Notes: generated from the sequence alone by a model not told the origin. DNA of 64,000 nucleotides from Thermoplasmata archaeon (GCA_046704665.1 JBJKRJ010000048.1:28829-92828); one strand, 5' to 3'; shown: positions 17,352 through 32,578, counted from the stretch's first letter. Numbers and translations are program-made.

Positions 17352-18149
17352 GTGCCGTCGCCCGAGCCCGGTCAGTTGCGGCTTGTCCGGGGGGATGCCC
17401 GTCGGCCGGACCGGCTGCGGGAGCGGTCGGTGCACCTGGTCGTCACCTCTCCTCCGTACCCGATGATCCCTCAGTGGGACGCGCTCTTCCGTGCCCTGGG
17501 GGCGACCGATTATCCGGGAATGCTGAGGGTGCTCTCGGACGCCTGGCGGGAGTGCTACCGCCTGCTCGTCCCGGGGGGGATCCTCGCCGTCACCATCGGC
17601 GATGCGCTCCGCTCGGACCGGGGCGAGTTCCGCCTCTGGCCGAACCATGCCGAGACGCTGGTAGCCGCGACCTCCGCGGGGTTCACGCCTCTTCCGTACC
17701 TCCTCTGGAAGAAGCCGACCAACAAACCGAACGCGTTCCTCGGCTCCGGGTTCCTCCCCCCGAACGCCTACGTGACACTCGACTGCGAGTTCATCCTATT
17801 GTTCCGCAAAGGCTCGCTGCGCCGGTTCGCCGCCCACGACCCGGCCCGCGCGGCGAGCCGGTTCTCACGGGAGGAGCGGGACCGCTGGTTCTCCCAGATC
17901 TGGTCGGATGTCCGGGGCGCGCCGCAGGGTTCGGCCGGCGGACGCACCGGGGCGTTCCCGGACGAACTCGCCGAACGCCTCGTCCGGATGTTCTCGGTCG
18001 TCGGGGATACCGTCCTCGACCCGTTCGCCGGCACCGGTACGACGCTGTGGGCGGCGCTCCGTTGGGGCCGTCATGCGGTCGGGATCGAGTGGGACCCGGA
18101 GGTATTCCGACGGCTCAGGGCGACGGCGCGGGCTCGGGGCTACCGATAG
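17352..18149 (+). CDS. DNA methyltransferase, beta-class (SPPY motif, probably N4-cytosine or N6-adenine).
   Basis: Motif IV VVTSPPY lies near the N-terminus and the AdoMet motif I DPFAGTGTT near the C-terminus. This permuted order is typical of beta-class amino-methyltransferases. Confidence 0.8.
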   Translation: MPSPEPGQLRLVRGDARRPDRLRERSVHLVVTSPPYPMIPQWDALFRALGATDYPGMLRVLSDAWRECYRLLVPGGILAVTIGDALRSDRGEFRLWPNHAETLVAATSAGFTPLPYLLWKKPTNKPNAFLGSGFLPPNAYVTLDCEFILLFRKGSLRRFAAHDPARAASRFSREERDRWFSQIWSDVRGAPQGSAGGRTGAFPDELAERLVRMFSVVGDTVLDPFAGTGTTLWAALRWGRHAVGIEWDPEVFRRLRATARARGYR

Positions 18150-18687
18150 TAGGCTCGGGAGTCTCTTCGGTCGGCTCCGGGGACGGTGGCAATGGGGGCG
18201 GCCGCGCACGGCGGGGAGGAGGCGGTGAACGGTGGGCGATCTCCTCCTCGACCGCCGCTCTGAGGTACCGGAGGGCCGAGTCGCTGAGCCGGTCCATGTG
18301 CAAGAGCAGGTAGTGGAGATAGAGCCGCTCCGGACGATGGGAGGGTCCGGGAGGCCGGAGGGGACGGCCCTCCGCGTCGACCGGGGGTTGATGGCGCTCC
18401 AGCGTCTCCCGATGGTGCTCGTGCGCCTTCCCGTGGAACTCCCGTCCTGTCGGACCGACGAGCGGAGGGTAGAGGAGACCGATCGGGTCGTCCGGGTCCG
18501 AAAAATCGGGGTCCGGGACCGTGGGCGGTACCGGCTCGGCGTTCTTCTTGCGGAGGTAGGGATGGACGGGCCGTGCGGGGTCCTGGAGCTCCGAGATCGG
18601 TCGCCCGGCGACCTCCTCGACGATCGTCTTCAGGTTCCAGCTCGCCCGGCGGCGGGCCGGACCGTCCGCGGTGGCCTCGTCGCCCAC
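18115..18687 (-). CDS. Hypothetical protein, last gene of the transfer-like operon.
   Basis: 190-aa ORF starting 55 nt downstream of the VirB4-like gene on the same strand. Amino-acid composition is protein-like (contains K, Y, H, F), whereas the opposite-strand ORF is Arg-rich. No recognisable domain. Confidence 0.3.
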   Translation of the reverse strand: MGDEATADGPARRRASWNLKTIVEEVAGRPISELQDPARPVHPYLRKKNAEPVPPTVPDPDFSDPDDPIGLLYPPLVGPTGREFHGKAHEHHRETLERHQPPVDAEGRPLRPPGPSHRPERLYLHYLLLHMDRLSDSALRYLRAAVEEEIAHRSPPPPRRARPPPLPPSPEPTEETPEPTIGSPEPAPSP

Positions 18688-18741: not shown

Positions 18742-20406
18742 TCAGCCCGGGGGCCGTGGGTCCTCTCCGAGGGTCCGGGTGAGAAGCTCGTACTCGGGGG
18801 TCGAGGCGACGATCGCGAGGGGCAGGTGGAGCTCTCCGACCCGCCAGAGCGATTCGGAATAGCCGGCCTCCCGCGGGAGACGGGCCTTTGGGAGCCACTC
18901 CGCCTCCGCGGTCGTCAGGCCGAAGAAGTCGCGGCAGGCGCCCGAGACCTCCGGGAGCCGGAGGAAGGCACTCGCGTAGAGGTTCCGGAGGAGGGAACGG
19001 CCGGCGGCATGCCCGAGGAAGTCGTCCGGGTTCTGGCTCAGGAGAAGCACCCCGGCCCCGAAATGGCGGAGGTGGCGCACGACCCGGTCCAGGAACTCGG
19101 CGGTCGCGATGTGGTGCGTGAGGAGGTGGGCCTCGTCGATCAGGAGGAGCTTCGGCCCCGGCCTTCCCCGGAGGCGCCCGTACGCCCAGTCGAGCAGATA
19201 GGCGAGGTGGAACGGGAGCTGGTCCTCGGCGACCCCGCGGAAGTCGACGGAGACCGGCCCGTCGGCCAGGGCGAGGGTGGTCGGCCCGTTGAGGGTTCGG
19301 AGCGAACCGGAGCGGAAGACCTCGAGGAGCGTGGCGAGCCGGTCGGCGGGACGTCCCGGCTCGTCGAGGAGTCGGTAGAGCTCCTCGAACGTCGGCCCCT
19401 CCCCGCCCTCCGCGTAGAGCCGGGAGACGGCCGTGTCGAGCCGGGCGGCCTCCTCGTCGCGCAGGCTCGGAAACAGGGCGCGGAGCATCGCCCCGACGCG
19501 GGCCGCCTTCTCCCGGCGGTCGCCCCCGGTCGTCGCGGGGTCGAGCGGGTTCAGCCGGCCTGCGTCCGCCTCCGCGAGCCTAACGACCGAACCCCCGAGC
19601 GCGCGGACGAGCGCTCCGAACTCCCCAAGCGGGTCGAGGATCACGAGGTCGGTCTCGGGCCGCAGCCAGCGCGTTCGGAGCGCGAGCAGGGCCGCCGAGA
19701 ACGACTTCCCCGATCCGGTCGTTCCGAAGATCGCCCAGGAGTAGCTCGCGTGGTCCCACCGGTCGAGGAAGACCGGGCTCGCGTCGGAGAGGGCGAGGCC
19801 GACCAGCACGCCGTTCGATTCGAGGACCGTCTCGTCGGCGAACGGGAAGAGGGCGGCGATCCCGTCGGTGGGAAGCGTCTGCCAGTAGCCGGACGGACGG
19901 GACGACGCGGGGTGGAACTCGGGGGCTGCCATCGCCTCCCGGACCTCGTAGCGGGGGATCCTCGTGCGGAATCCGAACGTCGTGAGACGCTCCGAGAGGC
20001 GGGTACGCAGGGCCTCGAGCCGGGGCCGTGAGGAGGAACGCACCGTCCAGCGGAGACCGACCTTCCAGAGCTCCTGCGTCCTACGGGCCACGGCGCGGCC
20101 GAGCTCCTCGGCGGAGTCCCGCTCGATCTCGAGCTCGGCCGCGCGGCCCCCCGGATCCCCCGCGCGCAGCTCGGCCTCGGCCACCGCGCGGGCGCCGTGG
20201 AGGATCTCGAGGGCGCGGACCGGCGGGATCCGGTGCGCCTCGACCCAGAGCTCGACCGGTTCGGTCGTCGTGAGGACGCGCCCCAAGAACCCGAATGGGA
20301 GCTCGGGAGGGAACTGCCGGATCAGGACCGGGGCCCGGTAGTGGCGACCGATGCGGATCCAGCTGGCCCCCTCCACCGCCCGAGGGATCGACGGGCGCGC
20401 CGTCAT
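18742..20406 (-). CDS. VirB4/TrbE/CedB-like conjugation-type ATPase.
   Basis: Walker A FGTTGSGKSF and Walker B LLLIDEAHLL. The N-terminal domain has the VirB4-like pattern YRAPVLIRQFPPELPFGFLGRVL. Start ATG at 20406-20404 overlaps the stop of the upstream small membrane gene (ATGA). The longer track ORF N-terminus is R/P-rich and discarded. Confidence 0.75.
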   Translation of the reverse strand: MTARPSIPRAVEGASWIRIGRHYRAPVLIRQFPPELPFGFLGRVLTTTEPVELWVEAHRIPPVRALEILHGARAVAEAELRAGDPGGRAAELEIERDSAEELGRAVARRTQELWKVGLRWTVRSSSRPRLEALRTRLSERLTTFGFRTRIPRYEVREAMAAPEFHPASSRPSGYWQTLPTDGIAALFPFADETVLESNGVLVGLALSDASPVFLDRWDHASYSWAIFGTTGSGKSFSAALLALRTRWLRPETDLVILDPLGEFGALVRALGGSVVRLAEADAGRLNPLDPATTGGDRREKAARVGAMLRALFPSLRDEEAARLDTAVSRLYAEGGEGPTFEELYRLLDEPGRPADRLATLLEVFRSGSLRTLNGPTTLALADGPVSVDFRGVAEDQLPFHLAYLLDWAYGRLRGRPGPKLLLIDEAHLLTHHIATAEFLDRVVRHLRHFGAGVLLLSQNPDDFLGHAAGRSLLRNLYASAFLRLPEVSGACRDFFGLTTAEAEWLPKARLPREAGYSESLWRVGELHLPLAIVASTPEYELLTRTLGEDPRPPG

Positions 20407-20780
20407 CCGCCTCCGATCGGACGGACGGGCCCGGAGGGCCGACGCCGTTCCGCAAGCCAGAGCGGCACGACCGCGAGCGTCACGAGGAGGCCCCGGAACG
20501 GGAGGAGCTCCGCGCCCGGATATCCATACACGAACGCTCCGCCGGCGAGAAGGCCCAGCGCGAGGAGGCGGTCGGGACGGACGAGCGCGGTCCATCCTCC
20601 TCCCCGACGGGCGATCATCGAAGCCCAGCCCGCCAACGCGAGCGCGGCGAGGGTCCCCGCGAGCGCGGCGAGGAACGGCTCGAGCACCGAGAGCGCCCCG
20701 GCCACCAGGCCGACGCCCATCGCGCTCCCGAAGACTTCGAACTCCATCGGGGGGAACCGGACGGACCGGGGGTCGGTCAT
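20403..20780 (-). CDS. Small membrane protein (about 3 TM helices), VirB3/CedA2-like by position.
   Basis: 125 aa and hydrophobic. Its start and stop both overlap the neighbouring genes, indicating translational coupling immediately upstream of the VirB4-like ATPase. Confidence 0.5.
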   Translation of the reverse strand: MTDPRSVRFPPMEFEVFGSAMGVGLVAGALSVLEPFLAALAGTLAALALAGWASMIARRGGGWTALVRPDRLLALGLLAGGAFVYGYPGAELLPFRGLLVTLAVVPLWLAERRRPSGPVRPIGGG

Positions 20781-21559
20781 TCCCTTGCCTCCGCGGCCGA
20801 CCAGCCGATCTCACGGGCGGCCTCGATCAGTCCCCGACCCCGCAGGCGCACCGGCCGAAGGCCGAGGTTCGTCAGCCGCTCCTCGAGCGAGACGATCTCC
20901 GTCTCGAGCCGAGCCCGGGCCTCGGCGCCCCCCGAGCCGACGCCGACCACGAGGTAGATCTTCCGCCGGAACCGACGACGACAGAGCAGTCCGACGAGCT
21001 CCGAGTAGCCGGCACGCGCGGGGGCCTCCTCGCTCCGGCGGTCTTCGGGGGCGGGAAGGAACGGTGCGGTCCGGATCGATCCCAGTGTCGCGAGGAAGGC
21101 GATGCGTCCGTCGGTCGCCCGGAGGAGCTCGCGGAACAGCTCGAACCGACGGGCGAGGTCCGAGGGAGGAAGATAGGTGATCGGAATGCCTCCGGTCCGG
21201 ACGACGGCGACGTGGTCGGCCGGTCCGAGCTCCAGAAGACCGCTCCGCGCGGACCGTCCCGGGCGAAGGCCGCTCAGGAGGATCCCTCCCGCGGTCGCGT
21301 GCCCTTGCCATCGGAGGAAGGCGAGGAGGCGCTCCTCCCAGGACCGGCCGTCCGGACGCCAGACGGCGGCGACGAACCCGACGGCCACGACCGCGAGTCC
21401 CGCGGGGAGGCTCGCGAGCTCGGCGAGCGCCGCCCCCGCCGCGGCGTAGCAGAGGAACTTGAGGGCGTCCTGGGCCGAAGGGAACGGTCCGAGCCGAAGG
21501 CGACGGTCGATGCGCTCCGGGAGCGCGACCACGGGGAGGCCGTCCGCACCGGCCGCCAT
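20777..21559 (-). CDS. Membrane-anchored protein (N-terminal TM plus soluble domain), possibly VirB8-like.
   Basis: Start placed at ATG 21559-21557, 4 nt after the stop of the upstream gene. The track ORF start at 21655 would overlap the upstream gene by 92 nt. There is one hydrophobic helix (FLCYAAAGAALAELASLPAGLAVVAVGFVAAVW) followed by a ~200-aa soluble region. Confidence 0.45.
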   Translation of the reverse strand: MAAGADGLPVVALPERIDRRLRLGPFPSAQDALKFLCYAAAGAALAELASLPAGLAVVAVGFVAAVWRPDGRSWEERLLAFLRWQGHATAGGILLSGLRPGRSARSGLLELGPADHVAVVRTGGIPITYLPPSDLARRFELFRELLRATDGRIAFLATLGSIRTAPFLPAPEDRRSEEAPARAGYSELVGLLCRRRFRRKIYLVVGVGSGGAEARARLETEIVSLEERLTNLGLRPVRLRGRGLIEAAREIGWSAAEARE

Positions 21560-21563
21560 CCCA

Positions 21564-22724
21564 TCACGAACCTCCCTTACGGATCGGACCCCACCGCTTC
21601 GCTTCGGACGGGCGACGCGTCGGTCCCGGCGTGGAGCCGCCGGTCTTCCGCGCATTGCGGGTGACGTGGCGCAGTAGGTGAAGGGCCCCCCGGCCGATCA
21701 GCTCGCCCGCCGCGAGAGGGGCGGCGGCGGGAAGTGCCGCGGACCCGGCGGCCCGCACCGTCCCCGAGATCGTGGAGCCGATCGCCCCGCTCGTGCGTGC
21801 GCTCTCGGCGATCGGCCGGAAGCGTGCCACGGCACCCGAGGGGGCCGCCGCGCCCCCGCGCGTGACCGCGCCTCCCATGGTGGCTCCCGCGCCGGGGAAG
21901 CCGAACGAGACCAGTTGGGTGCCGGCGAGCGAGAGCAGGTACGGGGAGGCGACAGCGGCGCTGAGGTACCCGACGAGGAGGACCGGGTTCGGACTGCCGA
22001 CGGCGAGCTCGAGCGGGACCACGAGGACGCACGGCAAGAAGACGAGCTCGACGAACAGGAGCCAGGCGCGGCGGGCGAGGGTCGAGAGCGGGCGGAGGGG
22101 CCAGAGAAGGGTGAAGATCGGTAGCACGACCAACAGCACGGCGAGGAGGGCGTCCCGGACCCCGATCGCCAGGATGAGGGCGAAGACCGCCAGGAACTCG
22201 ACCACGGCCAGAAGGAAGGCGAGCGCGCCATTGTCCCACGAATAGCGGAGCTCTCCCCAGCCGGCGAGGTGGACCCACTGCTGCCAGGCCCCCCCGTCCC
22301 AGCCGGCCATCACCGGGAAGAGGGCGCCCCCCACGGAGAGGAGCGCCGCGGCGATCGGCACCGTGAAGTTCGCGCCCACCACTCCGACGACGAGCCGGGG
22401 CAGGAGCGAGTCGAACGTCGCGGCCCAGCGGGCGACGAGCGGCTTCGCGAGGTAGAGGCATGCGATACCGAGGGCGAGGAGGGTCGCCGCCGGATCGACG
22501 ACGTTCGCGAGCGTGTATGTCGAGAAGTGGGCTGCCGTCGCGAGGTAGTTCGAGGGGTCCGACCCGGGGGCGAGGACCGACGGATAGAGCGCCCCGACCT
22601 TGAGCTCGGGCACGAGGAGGTTGTCGTACGTCGGCCCGGTGATCGCGACCACGATCGCCGTGAGATCCGCGAACAGGGCGAACAGGATCGCCCGGATGAC
22701 CACCGTCCAGTCGATGCCGAGCAC
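21564..22724 (-). CDS. Polytopic membrane protein, VirB6/TrbL/CedA-like by architecture.
   Basis: 386 aa with at least 7 hydrophobic segments. The alternative-frame ORF 21577..22743 is R/G-rich and rejected. Confidence 0.55.
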   Translation of the reverse strand: MLGIDWTVVIRAILFALFADLTAIVVAITGPTYDNLLVPELKVGALYPSVLAPGSDPSNYLATAAHFSTYTLANVVDPAATLLALGIACLYLAKPLVARWAATFDSLLPRLVVGVVGANFTVPIAAALLSVGGALFPVMAGWDGGAWQQWVHLAGWGELRYSWDNGALAFLLAVVEFLAVFALILAIGVRDALLAVLLVVLPIFTLLWPLRPLSTLARRAWLLFVELVFLPCVLVVPLELAVGSPNPVLLVGYLSAAVASPYLLSLAGTQLVSFGFPGAGATMGGAVTRGGAAAPSGAVARFRPIAESARTSGAIGSTISGTVRAAGSAALPAAAPLAAGELIGRGALHLLRHVTRNARKTGGSTPGPTRRPSEAKRWGPIRKGGS

Positions 22725-22739: not shown

Positions 22740-23159
22740 TCACGAGCCCGTCAGCACCCAGTGGGCCAGCCCCCAGAACAACCCCGTCACCGCGGCGGTG
22801 AAGAGCAGCGTCCCGACCAGCGCGTCGCGGGCCCGGTCCTTCGCCTGCACCTTCTTCGTGATGTCGTTCGAGAACCAGCTCAACGCGACGCGGGCCCAGA
22901 CGAGGGCGAGGATCCCGCCTCCGGCGAGCCCGACCAGATCGACGAGCCGGTTGATCGCCGCGGTGAAGTTCCCGACGGCGGAGGAGGTTCCGGTCACCGA
23001 GGCCCCGTGGACCGCCGGTGCGACCGCGGTGGCGCCCGCCGTCCCGCTCGACACGATGAGAAGAAGGACGAACCCTACCGCCGTGGCCATCGCCGGGGAG
23101 GGCGCCCGCCGGCTACCATCCGCGAGCCGACCGGCTAGGAAACCTCGCGGGGAGACCAT
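22740..23159 (-). CDS. Pilin-like small membrane protein (VirB2/TrbC/CedA1-like).
   Basis: C-terminal 116-139 aa of the track ORF (start ATG 23159 or 23090). It has a leader, two hydrophobic helices (AVGFVLLLIVSSGTAGATAVA.. and ..LVGTLLFTAAVTGLFWGLAHWVL) and a basic loop KKVQAKDRARD. Confidence 0.5.
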   Translation of the reverse strand: MVSPRGFLAGRLADGSRRAPSPAMATAVGFVLLLIVSSGTAGATAVAPAVHGASVTGTSSAVGNFTAAINRLVDLVGLAGGGILALVWARVALSWFSNDITKKVQAKDRARDALVGTLLFTAAVTGLFWGLAHWVLTGS

Positions 23160-25402
23160 GCGTACACCTCCTCTCCGTCGGCGCCGGTTTCGCTCCGCAG
23201 GCGTCCCTCGCTGACCAGCCGCTCGAGGGTGGCCCGGGTCGTCGGGAGGGAGACCCCGGCCTCTTCGGCGAGCAGTTCGACCGTGGCCCGGTCGATCCCG
23301 TCCGCCGGTTCGATGATCCGACGGAGGACCGTCACCGGCTCGGGGGCGGGAGGCGGCGGGGTGCGAGCGCGCCCGCGGCGGCGCCGGTACCACGCGAATC
23401 CCCCGACCGCCACGAGGACGAGGGTCACGATGCCGCCCACCTCGGCCGTGACAGCGGCTCCCCCCGTACCGGCCGCGGAGGCCGCCGGGGGCGACGGAAC
23501 CGTGGGAGGCGGGGAGTCCGAGGGAGGCGAGCCCGGAGCGACGGTCGGGAAGTGGACGGTCGCGTTCTCGGACCACCGGACGCCGAGACGGTCGACGACC
23601 ACGATCTCCTCCCGTACGTTCCCCGTCCCGTTGGTCGGCCAGGACCAGGAGTACGACCCGTCCAACGGTGCGGAGGCGTTTCCCTCGGGCCGGGAGGTCG
23701 AGTTCGCCCAGAGGGCGAACGGAGGCAGACCCCCCTCCAGGGTAAGATTCAGCACGAGGGACGGGCTTGGATCTCCCGGCACCACCGTCAGCTGGCCGGA
23801 CACTTCGAGGGGAGCCACCAGCTTCAGAGGTCGGTCCGTCCACCAGAACGCTCCCCCCGAGTCGATGACACCGACCGTGATCGAGGAGTTCCCTTCGTAG
23901 GGAAGGGTGCCGGTCCACTCGAACCCTGAGACGACGGAGAGGTTCCCTTCGGGAGTCGAGCTATTGGCCGGTGGCAGACCCGGCACGACGAACCAGAGGA
24001 ACGGAGCGACGCCCTGAGTGACGGTTCCCGTGAGGAGGACCGTGGGACCGGCGGCCCGGATCGAGCACGAGACCGTAACCGAGACGTTCAGCGCCCCATC
24101 AACCGCGAGCTGGGCGGAGGAGTTGCGGACCTCGAAGCCCAGCGCATCTTCGACGACGACCGAGACCCCGAAGCTCCCGGATACGGCAGGGTCGACCGGG
24201 ACGAGCAGGGTGCCATCGGTGGACAGTGTGGTGTGCGAACCGTTCGCGTCTCCCTCCAGGCCCCACTGCACGTGGAACGGCGGGACACCCCCGGACACCT
24301 CCACCGCGACGATGGCCGGCTGTCCGACCTCGGTCGAGGGGTCGGGGAGGTGCACTCCGAGCCCGAGCGAGGAACGCACCGGGAGGGAGAGGGTGGCGGT
24401 CGCCGGAGGGGGCGTGCCGCCGGACGGGACCACTTCGAAGGTGATCTCGGCGCTCCCCGGGGAGGCGAACGCACAGCTGAAGTTCTCCGTCGGTCCGCTC
24501 GGGGTGGGACCGGAACGGAAGCCGGCCGCCGCCACGGGACGCGCATCGGAGCAGCTCGTCGCCTCGCTGTAGAGGCTCGGAGGATCGAGGATCCGTCCGC
24601 GGAAGGCGACCGACGCTCCCACCTCCGTCGAGTACCGCGCACTTTCGATCCCCACGGCGAAGTTCGAGCTCGAGTATTCCGGCTCGACCACCGACCCGTT
24701 CGTGGTAAGCCCGATCGAATCCACGACCGAGATCGTGGGAGCGAAGGTCCCCTCGGGAAAGCGGTGCGGTATCGTGAACGCTCCCGGGCTCGTGAAGTAG
24801 AGCTCCGAGAACGCTCCGTCCCCCCAGGTGACCCGGACGCGGTAGGGTGGCGTCCCATCGATCAGGGAACCGGTCAGGTTCACGGTCGAACCGACGGGGG
24901 CCGGATCGGTGTCGAAGGCGAGCGGACCGAGTTGCGGCGGAACAACGACCGTGACGTTCGCGGTCGCGCGCTGAACGTCCGCGCTCTCTCCCGTCCCACA
25001 GTGGACGACGGTCGCCGACCGCACTTCGACTCGGGCGACGCCGGACGAGGCGCCGTACGCCGTGAAGTGGGTGATCGAGGTGTCGAGGGGGCCGAGCGCC
25101 CCCTCGGCCCAACCGGCGAGTACGGACCATCGGAACGAGACGGGGGTGTTCGTGCATCCCGGCGGAATGCCCGACCAGGTCGCCACGAACGCGGTCGAGT
25201 TCCCGGCCACCATCCACCACGACGTGGGGGCAACGGACAGCTGGGGAGCCGCGGGTGCGGCCGAGCCGAGGAAGGGAGCCGAAACGGGAGAAGGAGGGAA
25301 GACGACCGGGGAGCTCCACGCTCCCAGCAGGATCCCGAGCACCAGCGCGGCGGGGAGACCGGCGGCCCCGCAGAACCTCGGAACGCACTTCTTCGGCGAC
25401 AC
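23135..25402 (-). CDS. Large secreted, heavily N-glycosylated surface protein with a C-terminal TM helix and a cytoplasmic winged-helix domain.
   Basis: Signal peptide MSPKKCVPRFCGAAGLPAALVLGILLGAW. About 18 N-x-S/T sequons and repeated beta-rich Ig/PKD-like segments (..PPYRVRVTWGDG.., ..PPFHVQWGLEGD..). A Pro/Ser-rich stalk precedes the TM helix GGIVTLVLVAVGGFAWY and RRRRGRAR. A ~70-aa wHTH-like tail follows (VLRRIIEPADGIDRATVELLAEEAGVSLPTTRATLERLVSEGRL). Confidence 0.65.
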   Translation of the reverse strand: MSPKKCVPRFCGAAGLPAALVLGILLGAWSSPVVFPPSPVSAPFLGSAAPAAPQLSVAPTSWWMVAGNSTAFVATWSGIPPGCTNTPVSFRWSVLAGWAEGALGPLDTSITHFTAYGASSGVARVEVRSATVVHCGTGESADVQRATANVTVVVPPQLGPLAFDTDPAPVGSTVNLTGSLIDGTPPYRVRVTWGDGAFSELYFTSPGAFTIPHRFPEGTFAPTISVVDSIGLTTNGSVVEPEYSSSNFAVGIESARYSTEVGASVAFRGRILDPPSLYSEATSCSDARPVAAAGFRSGPTPSGPTENFSCAFASPGSAEITFEVVPSGGTPPPATATLSLPVRSSLGLGVHLPDPSTEVGQPAIVAVEVSGGVPPFHVQWGLEGDANGSHTTLSTDGTLLVPVDPAVSGSFGVSVVVEDALGFEVRNSSAQLAVDGALNVSVTVSCSIRAAGPTVLLTGTVTQGVAPFLWFVVPGLPPANSSTPEGNLSVVSGFEWTGTLPYEGNSSITVGVIDSGGAFWWTDRPLKLVAPLEVSGQLTVVPGDPSPSLVLNLTLEGGLPPFALWANSTSRPEGNASAPLDGSYSWSWPTNGTGNVREEIVVVDRLGVRWSENATVHFPTVAPGSPPSDSPPPTVPSPPAASAAGTGGAAVTAEVGGIVTLVLVAVGGFAWYRRRRGRARTPPPPAPEPVTVLRRIIEPADGIDRATVELLAEEAGVSLPTTRATLERLVSEGRLRSETGADGEEVYAWSPREVS

Positions 25403-25478
25403 TACCGCCCACCGTCATGGGCGGTGGTACGCGCGAGGTATTTCCACCGCCATCGGTCGGCGGAGGATGGATGCTGGC

Positions 25479-32185: not shown

Positions 32186-32578
32186 ATGTCGATTCGGGTC
32201 AACATGTCGGCCGTCGCGACGACCCGTCCCGAACGCGGTCTTGAAGAACGACTCGAACGGTTGTGTGGGGACGACGGCACGTGTGCCGTTCCGGACTATA
32301 CCCGGCTCGCGAAGGGCGTGCGGACCTCGCGCGTGTTCCCCGAGGCGCTCGCCCGCGTGAAGGCGCTCGCCGACGAGCACCGGCTCCTCGTGGTCGCCCT
32401 CCTGAAACGTCGCCCGGAGCTGTGTGCCTGCGAGATCCAGGCGGCGACCGGGCTCACCCATGCGACCGTGAGCCACCACATGAACGTCCTCCGGGACGCG
32501 GGACTCGTCCGCGCCCGCAAGGAGGGCAAGTGGATGTACTATCGGCGCGCCCGGTCGACGGAGGTACGGATCCCGTGA
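32186..32578 (+). CDS. arsR: ArsR/SmtB family metalloregulator.
   Basis: HTH with the ELCACEIQAATGLTHATVSHHMNVLRDAGLV metal-binding/recognition helix. ATG at 32186, preceded by CTACATATAG (TATA-like). Confidence 0.8.
   Translation: MSIRVNMSAVATTRPERGLEERLERLCGDDGTCAVPDYTRLAKGVRTSRVFPEALARVKALADEHRLLVVALLKRRPELCACEIQAATGLTHATVSHHMNVLRDAGLVRARKEGKWMYYRRARSTEVRIP

Follow-up and report, generated by a model that had tools for sequence, protein, structure and literature searches.

Ced of the Sulfolobales and Ted of the Thermoproteales, both from thermophilic Crenarchaeota, are chromosomal, domesticated derivatives of T4SS that import DNA, and they are the only two archaeal systems of this kind described in PMC9905601 and PMC11868833. 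We analyzed a 64,000-nucleotide stretch of a Thermoplasmata genome (GCA_046704665.1, JBJKRJ010000048.1:28829-92828; referred to as the window), which carries a cluster resembling these systems. As in Ced and Ted, the cluster is chromosomal and by all appearances vertically inherited, sits among housekeeping genes, and encodes a VirB4-like ATPase, a polytopic VirB6-like candidate, and a small two-helix pilin-like protein, with no recognizable relaxase or VirD4. It differs from them in its host phylum and in sequence, where detectable similarity to Ced or Ted components is limited to the P-loop region of the ATPase (CedD, 5e-9). The first protein of the cluster, a glycoprotein with a cytoplasmic winged-helix (WH) tail, also sets the locus apart: neither a winged-helix component nor an Ig-repeat surface protein figures in the Ced and Ted papers (PMC9905601, PMC11868833; term search of PMC9905601). 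In the literature, we found no description of this glycoprotein or of a Thermoplasmata T4SS-like cluster.

The glycoprotein gene (23135..25402) is the first of an operon in which adjacent genes overlap; it and all features given below lie on the minus strand of the window unless stated otherwise. The second gene encodes a pilin-like small membrane protein of 139 aa (22740..23159), assigned from its conserved architecture and a weak Pfam match (T4SS_pilin, E = 0.036, below cut-off). Behind a long leader, this protein has two hydrophobic helices; its basic loop (TKKVQAKDRARD) is invariant, and its gene, with an ATG at 23159, overlaps the last 25 nt of the glycoprotein gene. Its profile found nothing among PDB sequences, a null result that gives no positive support for the assignment and that is consistent with pilins of different archaeal systems reportedly lacking mutual sequence similarity. 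The next gene (21564..22724) encodes a polytopic membrane protein of 386 aa, a VirB6/TrbL-like candidate on the strength of a precomputed PF19590 TrbL_3 match on orthologues, which hmmscan did not reproduce, either on the window protein or on three orthologues. It is followed by genes for p260 (20777..21559), a conserved protein of 260 aa in which a hydrophobic hairpin at the N terminus is followed by a cytoplasmic domain, with no family match and a conserved start at Met33 of the ORF; p125 (20403..20780), a 125-aa membrane protein encoded directly upstream of the ATPase gene and with orthologues of 120-124 aa; the VirB4-like ATPase of 554 aa (18742..20406); and p190 (18115..18687), a soluble protein of ~175-190 aa that is 57-76% conserved and encoded by the last operon gene. 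The ATPase matches the NCBIfam profiles conju_CD1110 (2.9e-39), VirB4_CagE (2.7e-14), and TraC (1e-12) and Pfam DUF87 (1.6e-9), all below equivalog cut-offs, and is best classed as a distant VirB4-family member. On the plus strand, the gene for an N6/N4 DNA methyltransferase (17352..18149; Pfam N6_N4_Mtase, 4.5e-33) converges on and overlaps the last operon gene and is syntenic in every locus reaching that far.

The resulting order, YjgF-fibrillarin-[glycoprotein gene]-pilin-like-TrbL-like-p260-p125-VirB4-like-p190-(MTase)-HPS/RraA, is kept at the same site in 60 species-level Thermoplasmata MAGs wherever the contig is long enough, with identical housekeeping genes on the flanks across genomes. 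Family searches of the operon, in the window and in orthologous loci, found no relaxase, VirD4/coupling protein, or integrase family. Taken at the level of gene content and synteny, the cluster appears to be chromosomal and vertically inherited and not carried on a mobile element. An earlier sequence-only reading of the window had placed the glycoprotein gene first in a DNA-transfer-like operon, and the VirB4-like ATPase downstream and an order fixed in 60 genomes agree with it. The host lineage is a widespread one of mesophilic peat and soil Thermoplasmata, represented by uncultured MAGs.

The glycoprotein ORF runs from a GTG start to a TAG stop, and its 755-aa translation, its homologues (23 close and at least 150 in a wider set), and a full-length AlphaFold model describe a predicted type I membrane glycoprotein. 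A signal peptide or signal anchor is predicted at aa 1-33 (25304..25402), where a basic n-region (K4, K5, and R9) precedes a hydrophobic stretch at aa 10-37; Kyte-Doolittle windows exceed 1.6 at aa 7-37, and a helix is modeled with low pLDDT at aa 16-30. The ectodomain (aa 54-618; 23549..25243) is all-beta in the model, folded into about six Ig/PKD-like sandwiches; its Foldseek matches are multi-Ig proteins, and two homologues have faint PKD matches. Sequons of the N-X-S/T type number 16, all within aa 68-613, and take up 16 of the 19 Asn residues, against 3.4 +/- 1.6 (maximum, 9) in 2000 shuffled sequences; homologues carry 11-27. Four ectodomain Cys residues (83, 135, 284, and 310) are invariant, and conservation within the ectodomain is highest in the membrane-distal domain 1 (53% identity). 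A Pro/Ser/Ala-rich stalk (aa 619-649; 23456..23548), predicted to be disordered (pLDDT <50 at aa 622-659), leads to a single transmembrane helix (aa 650-672; 23387..23455; hydrophobic at aa 647-672, hydropathy windows 646-673, modeled at aa 655-679) and a poly-Arg stop-transfer, RRRRGRAR (aa 673-680; 23363..23386), whose R-rich character is kept in all homologues. A family profile search gave no adhesin-domain match in the glycoprotein. The strong sequon enrichment and the four invariant Cys residues place the ectodomain outside the cell, and six Arg in the eight residues after a single transmembrane helix place the tail in the predicted cytoplasmic position. Both this topology and the succession of signal or anchor segment, Ig-like repeats, Pro/Ser stalk, single helix, and poly-Arg segment are as the sequence-only reading had them; dense N-glycosylation sequons also stood, with the earlier count of ~18 corrected to 16.

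The tail contains a 63-aa domain (aa 688-750; 23153..23341) that is predicted to have a winged-helix fold, with helices H1 (689-697), H2 (705-714), and H3 (719-731) and a beta-hairpin wing (735-749). Modeled alone with AlphaFold from 21 sequences, it reached a pLDDT of 85 overall and ~90 in the core and showed the order H-b-H-H-b-b (H14-25, b27-28, H30-39, H44-57, b60-64, and b70-74 in tail numbering); the full-length model shows the same elements. Essentially all of the top 50 Foldseek matches listed from the PDB are winged-helix domains, among them MarR, Fur, BlaI, PadR, RNAP III C39, LOTUS, cullin WHB, and histone H1 (best match, E = 3e-3 and TM-score 0.65-0.69; TM-score 0.6-0.69 across the list). 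In sequence, the tail stays below the curated cut-off of every wHTH family in Pfam and NCBIfam. For example, its Pfam scores were sub-threshold for DUF7342 (2.8e-4; 21.3 bits, cut-off 31.6), HTH_24 (13.9/21.9), GntR (13.7/27), and EutK_C (17.4/27.5); NCBIfam gave no match, and PdhR, at 5e-3, was a sub-threshold match among PDB sequences. The tail had previously been read as a wHTH, with structure prediction and a structural search proposed as checks, and both, run here with AlphaFold and Foldseek, return that fold.

Conservation is concentrated in the WH. Mean pairwise identity is 70% in the WH core, 43% in the ectodomain, and just 25% in the transmembrane helix, and the divergence of the WH (0.33) is on par with that of the cytoplasmic and membrane parts of the machine (VirB4, 0.31; p190, 0.33; TrbL, 0.36), compared to 0.64 for the ectodomain. 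A tail profile searched against 1.8 billion representative proteins gave 183 matches; nearly all of the best 150 of these are the first protein of this operon or its fragments, and every match whose genomic context was examined lies in the first slot of the operon. A few weak matches are unrelated repeat proteins (for example, P0163), and one locus with fragmented ORFs (L066, binned as a Terriglobia bacterium) was left out. The search for the same architecture in other archaeal genomes that had been suggested earlier yields at least 150 homologues in which the WH, and not the ectodomain, is the constant part.

In several lineages, the same slot is occupied by a WH-only protein of about 90-156 aa without signal peptide, Ig domains, or transmembrane helix, encoded by a gene that overlaps the pilin gene in an otherwise intact operon. 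Such loci occur on contigs of 615 kb and 574 kb, and in independent samples. We considered short tail matches as contig-edge fragments and rejected this explanation, as sequence and context identify at least 12 genuine WH-only proteins. One WH-only lineage is nested among long-form lineages, a position that indicates a probable secondary loss of the ectodomain and transmembrane helix; its protein still has W-R-R, left over from the juxtamembrane segment. Overall, the slot holds from 0 to about 7 Ig domains, as WH alone, WH with four or five, or WH with six or seven. A domain that is the best conserved part, is acidic, and is found free in some lineages appears to be an autonomous, indispensable cytoplasmic component, to which the ectodomain would be an optional add-on. 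The sequence-only reading had offered, as one of two roles, a coupling of cell-cell contact to DNA handling; this cannot be the essential role of the protein, because a free WH stands in its place in several lineages, where the ectodomain and transmembrane helix were lost or never present.

The premise that the tail binds DNA is not supported either. Wing and core are acidic: the net charge is -6 for the core and -2 for the wing in the window protein, and -3 to -13 for the core in nearly all of ~165 family members, with a G-x-D-G-E-E wing tip, whereas an ArsR wHTH encoded in the same window, used as a control, has +5 in both core and wing. The N-terminal half of helix 3 is where wHTH proteins read bases. 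In this family, no part of the domain varies more than that half (positions 44-49), and the conserved positions fall in H1 (VLRxII), H2 (VELLAEE.G), TLxRL, and the wing (DGEEVxAW). Judged from sequence, the WH has neither a basic or neutral H3-wing surface nor conserved base-contacting residues; the membrane tether is only ~15 residues long, and no palindromic operator is conserved in the interval from the TATA-like box to the start codon. Among WH-only variants, the charge shifts to neutral or basic in the deepest branches, where the wing is basic (P0145: core +3, wing +4), so an ancestral DNA-binding role is possible. The case is a warning that a wHTH fold need not mean DNA binding.

It is plausible, and we propose tentatively, that the WH is instead a protein-docking subunit of a T4SS-derived, Ced/Ted-like machine. 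The small acidic WH would be a dedicated cytoplasmic subunit of a chromosomal, vertically inherited apparatus in one lineage of uncultured Thermoplasmata, and its conserved acidic surface of H2 and wing would bind a basic cytoplasmic element of that machine; candidate partners are the VirB4-like ATPase, p260, and the pilin-like protein through its invariant basic loop. In most lineages, the WH is fused, through the ~15-residue linker, poly-Arg, one transmembrane helix, and the Pro/Ser stalk, to a rod of four to seven Ig-like domains that evolves fast and is heavily N-glycosylated; this fusion would bolt an extracellular arm onto the machine. The architecture, predicted fold, conservation pattern, operon synteny, and WH-only variants are observations, whereas the binding partner, an adhesive role for the arm, and a function of the machine in DNA exchange are inferences: the arm may plausibly recognize other cells or surfaces while DNA is exchanged, or reach through the cell envelope. 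A mirror-tree analysis of 38 loci, controlled with three housekeeping genes, singled out no WH partner (partial r with the WH: p260, 0.47; TrbL, 0.35; VirB4, 0.35; p190, 0.34; Pil, 0.26; MTase, 0.22). Counting against docking, the closest solved relatives of the fold are mostly DNA-binding regulators and the sequence is GntR/Lrp HTH-like; the pilin-like and VirB6-like assignments on which the model draws rest on weak or precomputed matches.

Both roles on DNA are less likely for the WH than docking. As the operon's own transcription regulator, the WH would be membrane tethered in most lineages with the ectodomain as a sensor, either in a one-component system or set free by regulated proteolysis, and elsewhere a free small regulator. 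The gene does stand first in the operon, the matches listed place the fold closest to MarR, Fur, BlaI, and PadR with a GntR/Lrp-like HTH motif, and the WH-only variants resemble small regulators, the deepest of them basic in H3 and wing. The upstream region is also suggestive: a TATA-like box (AAATAC; 25438..25443) ends 35 nt upstream of the GTG start and is recognizable in 43 of 58 orthologous intergenic regions, and just upstream of it, after the fibrillarin stop codon, long-form and WH-only loci share a conserved, non-palindromic motif of the TTYCAYC type (ATCCATC in the window) and, next to it, a GC hairpin (CCGCC..GGCGG; together 25447..25470). In the window, the interval from the TATA-like box to the start codon also holds a strong 8-bp inverted repeat. 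That repeat is not conserved, with inverted repeats in this interval beating shuffles in only 9% of 43 loci. Together with an acidic core and wing in nearly all members, a base-reading half of H3 that is hypervariable in an otherwise nearly invariant domain, the ~15-residue tether, no protease gene in the operon, and an overlap with a structural pilin-like gene (presumably translationally coupled, an unusual arrangement if only a few copies of a regulator are required), this makes a regulator unlikely.

A WH that takes up or hands over transferred DNA where the T4SS-like channel opens into the cytoplasm, in the manner of the C-terminal wHTH of FtsK or Streptomyces TraB, would account for the fold, for a DNA-transfer-type operon without a recognized relaxase or coupling protein, for the position of the domain within a few nanometres of the membrane, and for its retention when the ectodomain is lost. 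We consider it quite improbable, as the net negative charge and acidic wing make nonspecific DNA binding unlikely, the variable H3 speaks against a conserved specific site, and the WH is attached to no motor domain. We give very little credence to the view that the protein is the S-layer or major envelope glycoprotein of the lineage and that its T4SS-like neighborhood has no functional meaning. The signal peptide, tandem Ig-like domains, dense N-glycosylation, Pro/Ser stalk, and C-terminal transmembrane helix are indeed those of archaeal S-layer glycoproteins, and structural matches to the ectodomain include the S-layer protein of Haloferax (7ptp). However, a folded, highly conserved cytoplasmic domain comes after the anchor, the number of Ig domains ranges from 0 to about 7, the gene overlaps a pilin-like gene in an order fixed in 60 species, and whole lineages have lost the ectodomain and kept the WH and operon.

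The operon belongs to the core genome throughout a widespread lineage of mesophilic peat and soil Thermoplasmata. As a Ced/Ted-like system, it would extend the principle of the domesticated T4SS to another phylum and habitat, and the WH subunit would be a component absent from the descriptions of Ced and Ted in PMC9905601 and PMC11868833. The variants of the first slot amount to a natural dissection, in which the small cytoplasmic domain is the indispensable part and a surface recognition arm would have been bolted onto an envelope-spanning machine by gene fusion. A broader proposal is possible, although we regard it as doubtful: the locus could represent a third, independently domesticated conjugation-derived DNA-exchange machine of Archaea, and the first in Thermoplasmatota. 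Its acidic WH subunit would sit on the cytoplasmic side, mostly fused to a hypervariable glycoprotein arm for species-specific partner recognition, such that contact outside would be passed on, by mechanical or allosteric means, to the assembly of the pilus or the passage of DNA inside.

Other known proteins combine some of these features. ToxR, CadC, and TcpP carry an N-terminal, basic, OmpR-type wHTH in type II orientation with a C-terminal periplasmic sensor. Like them, the glycoprotein is a single-pass protein with an extracytoplasmic domain and a cytoplasmic winged helix, but the orientation is reversed, the WH is C-terminal and acidic, H3 is variable, no conserved operator was found, and a search of the glycoprotein gave no Trans_reg_C match, so the architecture is not ToxR-like. 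The FtsK gamma domain and the wHTH of Streptomyces TraB are appended to FtsK-type motors and bind specific 8-bp DNA motifs. They share with our protein a C-terminal winged helix on a membrane-anchored protein in a DNA-translocation setting, whereas here the same chain contains no motor and the WH surface is acidic. The LOTUS domain binds an ATPase. Oskar LOTUS and cullin WHB are among the structural matches of the tail (Foldseek ranks 13-20), showing that the fold can serve in protein docking instead of DNA reading, although the similarity is one of fold only (12-18% identity) between unrelated lineages and contexts.

On the extracellular side, archaeal S-layer glycoproteins form the surface lattice of the cell and have a C-terminal transmembrane or lipid anchor and at most a few cytoplasmic residues. 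The csg protein of Haloferax volcanii (PDB 7ptp) resembles the glycoprotein in its tandem Ig-like domains, heavy N-glycosylation, Ser/Thr/Pro-rich stalk, and C-terminal anchor. Unlike S-layer glycoproteins, the protein described here has no PGF-CTERM-type sorting signal, carries a 75-residue folded cytoplasmic extension, belongs to a T4SS-like operon, and has an ectodomain that is dispensable in some lineages. PrgB/aggregation substance, the surface adhesin of monoderm conjugation systems, is likewise a large surface protein encoded with a T4SS and presumed to aid contact between mating cells (PMC12857230). PrgB is held by an LPxTG/sortase wall anchor and has a polymer adhesin domain and no cytoplasmic part, whereas the Thermoplasmata glycoprotein is anchored by a predicted transmembrane helix and continues into a cytoplasmic WH.

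The gene that a sequence-only reading had placed at 23135-25402 keeps those coordinates and is read on the minus strand, from a GTG start to a TAG stop, encoding 755 aa; an identical protein is found in one NCBI entry, from a contig of 102 kb. An archaeal fibrillarin gene (Pfam 2.9e-54) lies immediately upstream. The N terminus has a basic n-region followed by a hydrophobic stretch (aa 10-37), and AlphaFold, run on the full length with 21 sequences (mean pLDDT 77.5), gives an all-beta ectodomain (aa 54-618) of about six Ig-like sandwiches, whose Foldseek matches include multi-Ig proteins such as a Haloferax S-layer protein. A disordered Pro/Ser stalk, one transmembrane (TM) helix, the cluster RRRRGRAR, and a predicted winged-helix (WH) tail follow, so sequence and model agree with the architecture described earlier. 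All 16 N-X-S/T sequons lie within the ectodomain and hold 16 of the protein's 19 Asn residues, versus 3.4 ± 1.6 sequons expected from shuffles. Homologues carry 11 to 27 sequons, and among homologues P0002 to P0023 some have every Asn within one (20/20 in P0006 and 11/11 in P0023); in this high-G+C genome (67 to 74% in the window), Asn is seemingly kept only at glycosylatable places. The predicted topology, with the ectodomain outside the cell and the tail in the cytoplasm as had been proposed, follows from the sequons, four invariant Cys residues (C83, C135, C284, and C310), the single TM helix, and the positive-inside cluster taken together. The second Ig-like domain (aa 169-233, about 24704-24898) has a sub-threshold NCBIfam match (E = 7e-7, 28 bits against a cutoff of 300) to PamR, which is RbmA-like and belongs to a pilus system of Patescibacteria; the match probably reflects common Ig/FnIII-like features only.

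Modeled alone with AlphaFold, the tail reached an overall pLDDT of 85, rising to about 90 in its core, with the element order H1-b-H2-H3-b-b. Among the best 50 Foldseek matches listed from the PDB, essentially all were winged-helix domains, most of them DNA-binding regulators (MarR, Fur, BlaI, and PadR) and some protein- or RNA-binding versions (LOTUS and cullin WHB). The best match had an E value of 3e-3 and a TM score of 0.65 to 0.69, and sequence profiles gave wHTH matches below threshold only. Fold prediction and Foldseek matches therefore support the predicted winged-helix fold that the sequence-only reading had recognized. Its further assumption, that the tail binds DNA, is weakened by the charge and conservation of the domain. 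The WH core has a net charge of -6 here, and among about 165 relatives nearly all fall between -3 and -13; the wing tip shows a G-x-D-G-E-E pattern. In contrast, a control ArsR wHTH encoded in the window has +5 in both core and wing. H1, the acidic H2 (VELLAEE.G), the C-terminal half of H3 (TLxRL), and the wing (DGEEVxAW) are conserved; the most variable stretch is the N-terminal half of H3, with which wHTH proteins read bases. The control regulator (32201-32578, plus strand; HTH_5 at 6e-13) is followed, to about 35000, by ORFs that by eye resemble a methyltransferase and an ACR3-type arsenite carrier, a probable arsenic-resistance cluster.

The WH is the best-conserved part of the adhesin, with a mean pairwise identity of 70% in its core compared to 43% in the ectodomain and 25% in the TM helix; it diverges at the rate of the other machine components and the ectodomain about twice as fast. 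A search of 1.8 billion representative proteins with a tail profile gave 183 matches, and nearly all of the best 150 listed were C-terminal tails of the adhesin family (forms of 630 to 770 aa, or of 500 to 590 aa with fewer Ig domains) or fragments. At least 12 matches were short proteins of 83 to 156 aa with a Met start and without a hydrophobic segment. The genes of the four WH-only proteins that we looked up (P0133, P0111, P0145, and P0142) all occupy exactly the adhesin slot: each comes right behind fibrillarin and overlaps the pilin-like gene. Their contigs are as long as 615 kb and come from independent samples, and the remaining operon is intact wherever the contig reaches far enough. 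In a neighbor-joining tree built from four proteins of the operon and its flanks, long-form lineages surround the WH-only lineage L068, whose protein keeps Trp and Arg residues left over from the juxtamembrane segment; this indicates secondary deletion of ectodomain and TM helix. Under midpoint rooting, another WH-only lineage, L071/L072, branches deepest. Its conservation and the WH-only loci show that the WH is the constant, autonomous component, and the ectodomain, with anywhere from zero to about seven Ig domains, is an add-on that is plastic in evolution. Coupling of cell contact to DNA handling, as suggested earlier, thus cannot be the essential role of a WH that is kept in lineages without an ectodomain. 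A few weak profile matches are unrelated repeat proteins (P0169, 262 aa; P0163, 743 aa; P0152, 3617 aa), and P0169 has four copies of a LLADEAG-P-x-V-K-x-AL-x-EEGRDES unit resembling the H2-H3 motif.

Six further genes, tightly packed or overlapping, lie 3' of the adhesin gene on the same strand, and its description as the first gene of a DNA-transfer-like operon is supported. The pilin-like gene (22740-23159, minus strand; 139 aa with a leader and two hydrophobic helices) starts with an ATG at 23159, overlapping the last 25 nt of the adhesin gene. Its product has a weak Pfam T4SS_pilin match (E = 0.036) and an invariant basic loop, TKKVQAKDRARD, between the helices; its conserved part begins with an invariant N-F-T/S sequon and is 52 to 94% identical across species, far above the adhesin ectodomain. 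A 386-aa polytopic protein has orthologues with a precomputed TrbL_3 (VirB6-like) match, which a repeat search did not reproduce. Two proteins without a family assignment, the 260-aa p260 (20777-21559, minus strand; a hydrophobic hairpin plus a cytoplasmic domain) and the 125-aa p125 (minus strand), accompany a VirB4-like ATPase (18742-20406, minus strand; conju_CD1110 at 2.9e-39), and the operon ends with the soluble, roughly 180-aa p190 (18115-18687, minus strand). A convergent N6/N4 DNA methyltransferase gene (17352-18149, plus strand) overlaps the 3' end of p190 in every locus examined; we noticed no restriction enzyme partner beside it, and a link to the marking of exchanged DNA is conceivable. 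No relaxase, coupling protein, or integrase was found in the operon or its orthologous loci.

In a scan of one genome per species, the adhesin gene was present in 60 genomes, 58 of them titled as MAGs of Thermoplasmata or Thermoplasmatales, for the most part recovered in surveys of peat and soil. The other two were binned as bacteria; one of these, L066 (CAWJHI010000091.1, Terriglobia bacterium), carries the archaeal operon with fragmented ORFs, probably through mis-binning together with assembly frameshifts. The order YjgF-fibrillarin-[adhesin gene]-pilin-like-TrbL-like-p260-p125-VirB4-like-p190-(MTase)-HPS/RraA-TruA is identical wherever the locus is long enough to reveal it; the operon belongs to the core chromosome, where it is fixed, and is not a mobile element.

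The organisms are uncultured, and all our functional statements draw on their sequences, on predicted structures, and on comparative genomics. The best-fitting explanation makes the WH a putative cytoplasmic docking subunit of a T4SS-like machine, to which the fusion would physically tie a glycosylated extracellular arm. It is favored because the conserved WH surface is acidic, H3 is variable, the tether is only about 15 residues, the adhesin gene overlaps a structural gene, and the WH is retained where the arm is lost. The partner would be expected to be basic, and the pilin-like protein's invariant loop TKKVQAKDRARD, predicted to be cytoplasmic, is a candidate; a mirror-tree test singled out no partner. 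The arm may serve recognition, a role that would fit its rapid evolution, its dense glycosylation, and a membrane-distal domain that is better conserved. That the adhesin is a plain S-layer protein is improbable given its fixed operon position and the lineages without an ectodomain. By analogy with FtsK gamma or the TraB wHTH, the WH might instead handle transferred DNA at the membrane, which its charge makes rather doubtful.

Autoregulation of the operon is a less likely alternative, with several points in its favor. The adhesin gene comes first, the closest relatives of the fold are regulators, and the WH-only proteins resemble small regulators, the deepest of them (P0145) being basic in the wing. 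Upstream of the TATA-like box, a TTYCAYC-type motif and a GC-rich hairpin (25447-25470, minus strand) follow the fibrillarin stop codon and recur in orthologous loci, long-form and WH-only alike (L068 at about 7935, L070 at about 1400, and L073 at about 171), with hairpin arms that vary in sequence while pairing is kept; they could serve fibrillarin, as its terminator or a 3' element, or instead form a promoter or a regulatory site. Acidic charge and the variable H3 speak against autoregulation, as does the promoter itself: the window has a perfect 8-bp inverted repeat, ACCGCCCA..TGGGCGGT (25404-25425, minus strand), between the TATA-like box and the start codon, ending 2 nt before the GTG and matched in 0 of 300 shuffles, but no inverted repeat is conserved there in orthologous loci, only 9% of which beat shuffles.

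The literature yielded no paper on such a cluster in Thermoplasmata, and its winged-helix component, usually fused to a surface glycoprotein, is previously undescribed. The match of the VirB4-like ATPase to the CD1110-type model begins only at model position 202, and the separate p260 is encoded upstream, an arrangement that recalls the VirB4 N-terminal domain reported to be split off in CedB/CedD (PMC11868833). Ced and Ted arose from T4SSs by domestication and import DNA (PMC9905601, PMC11868833), and the Thermoplasmata operon is likewise fixed in the core chromosome rather than mobile. The system is best described as a variant of domesticated conjugation machinery of the Ced/Ted kind.
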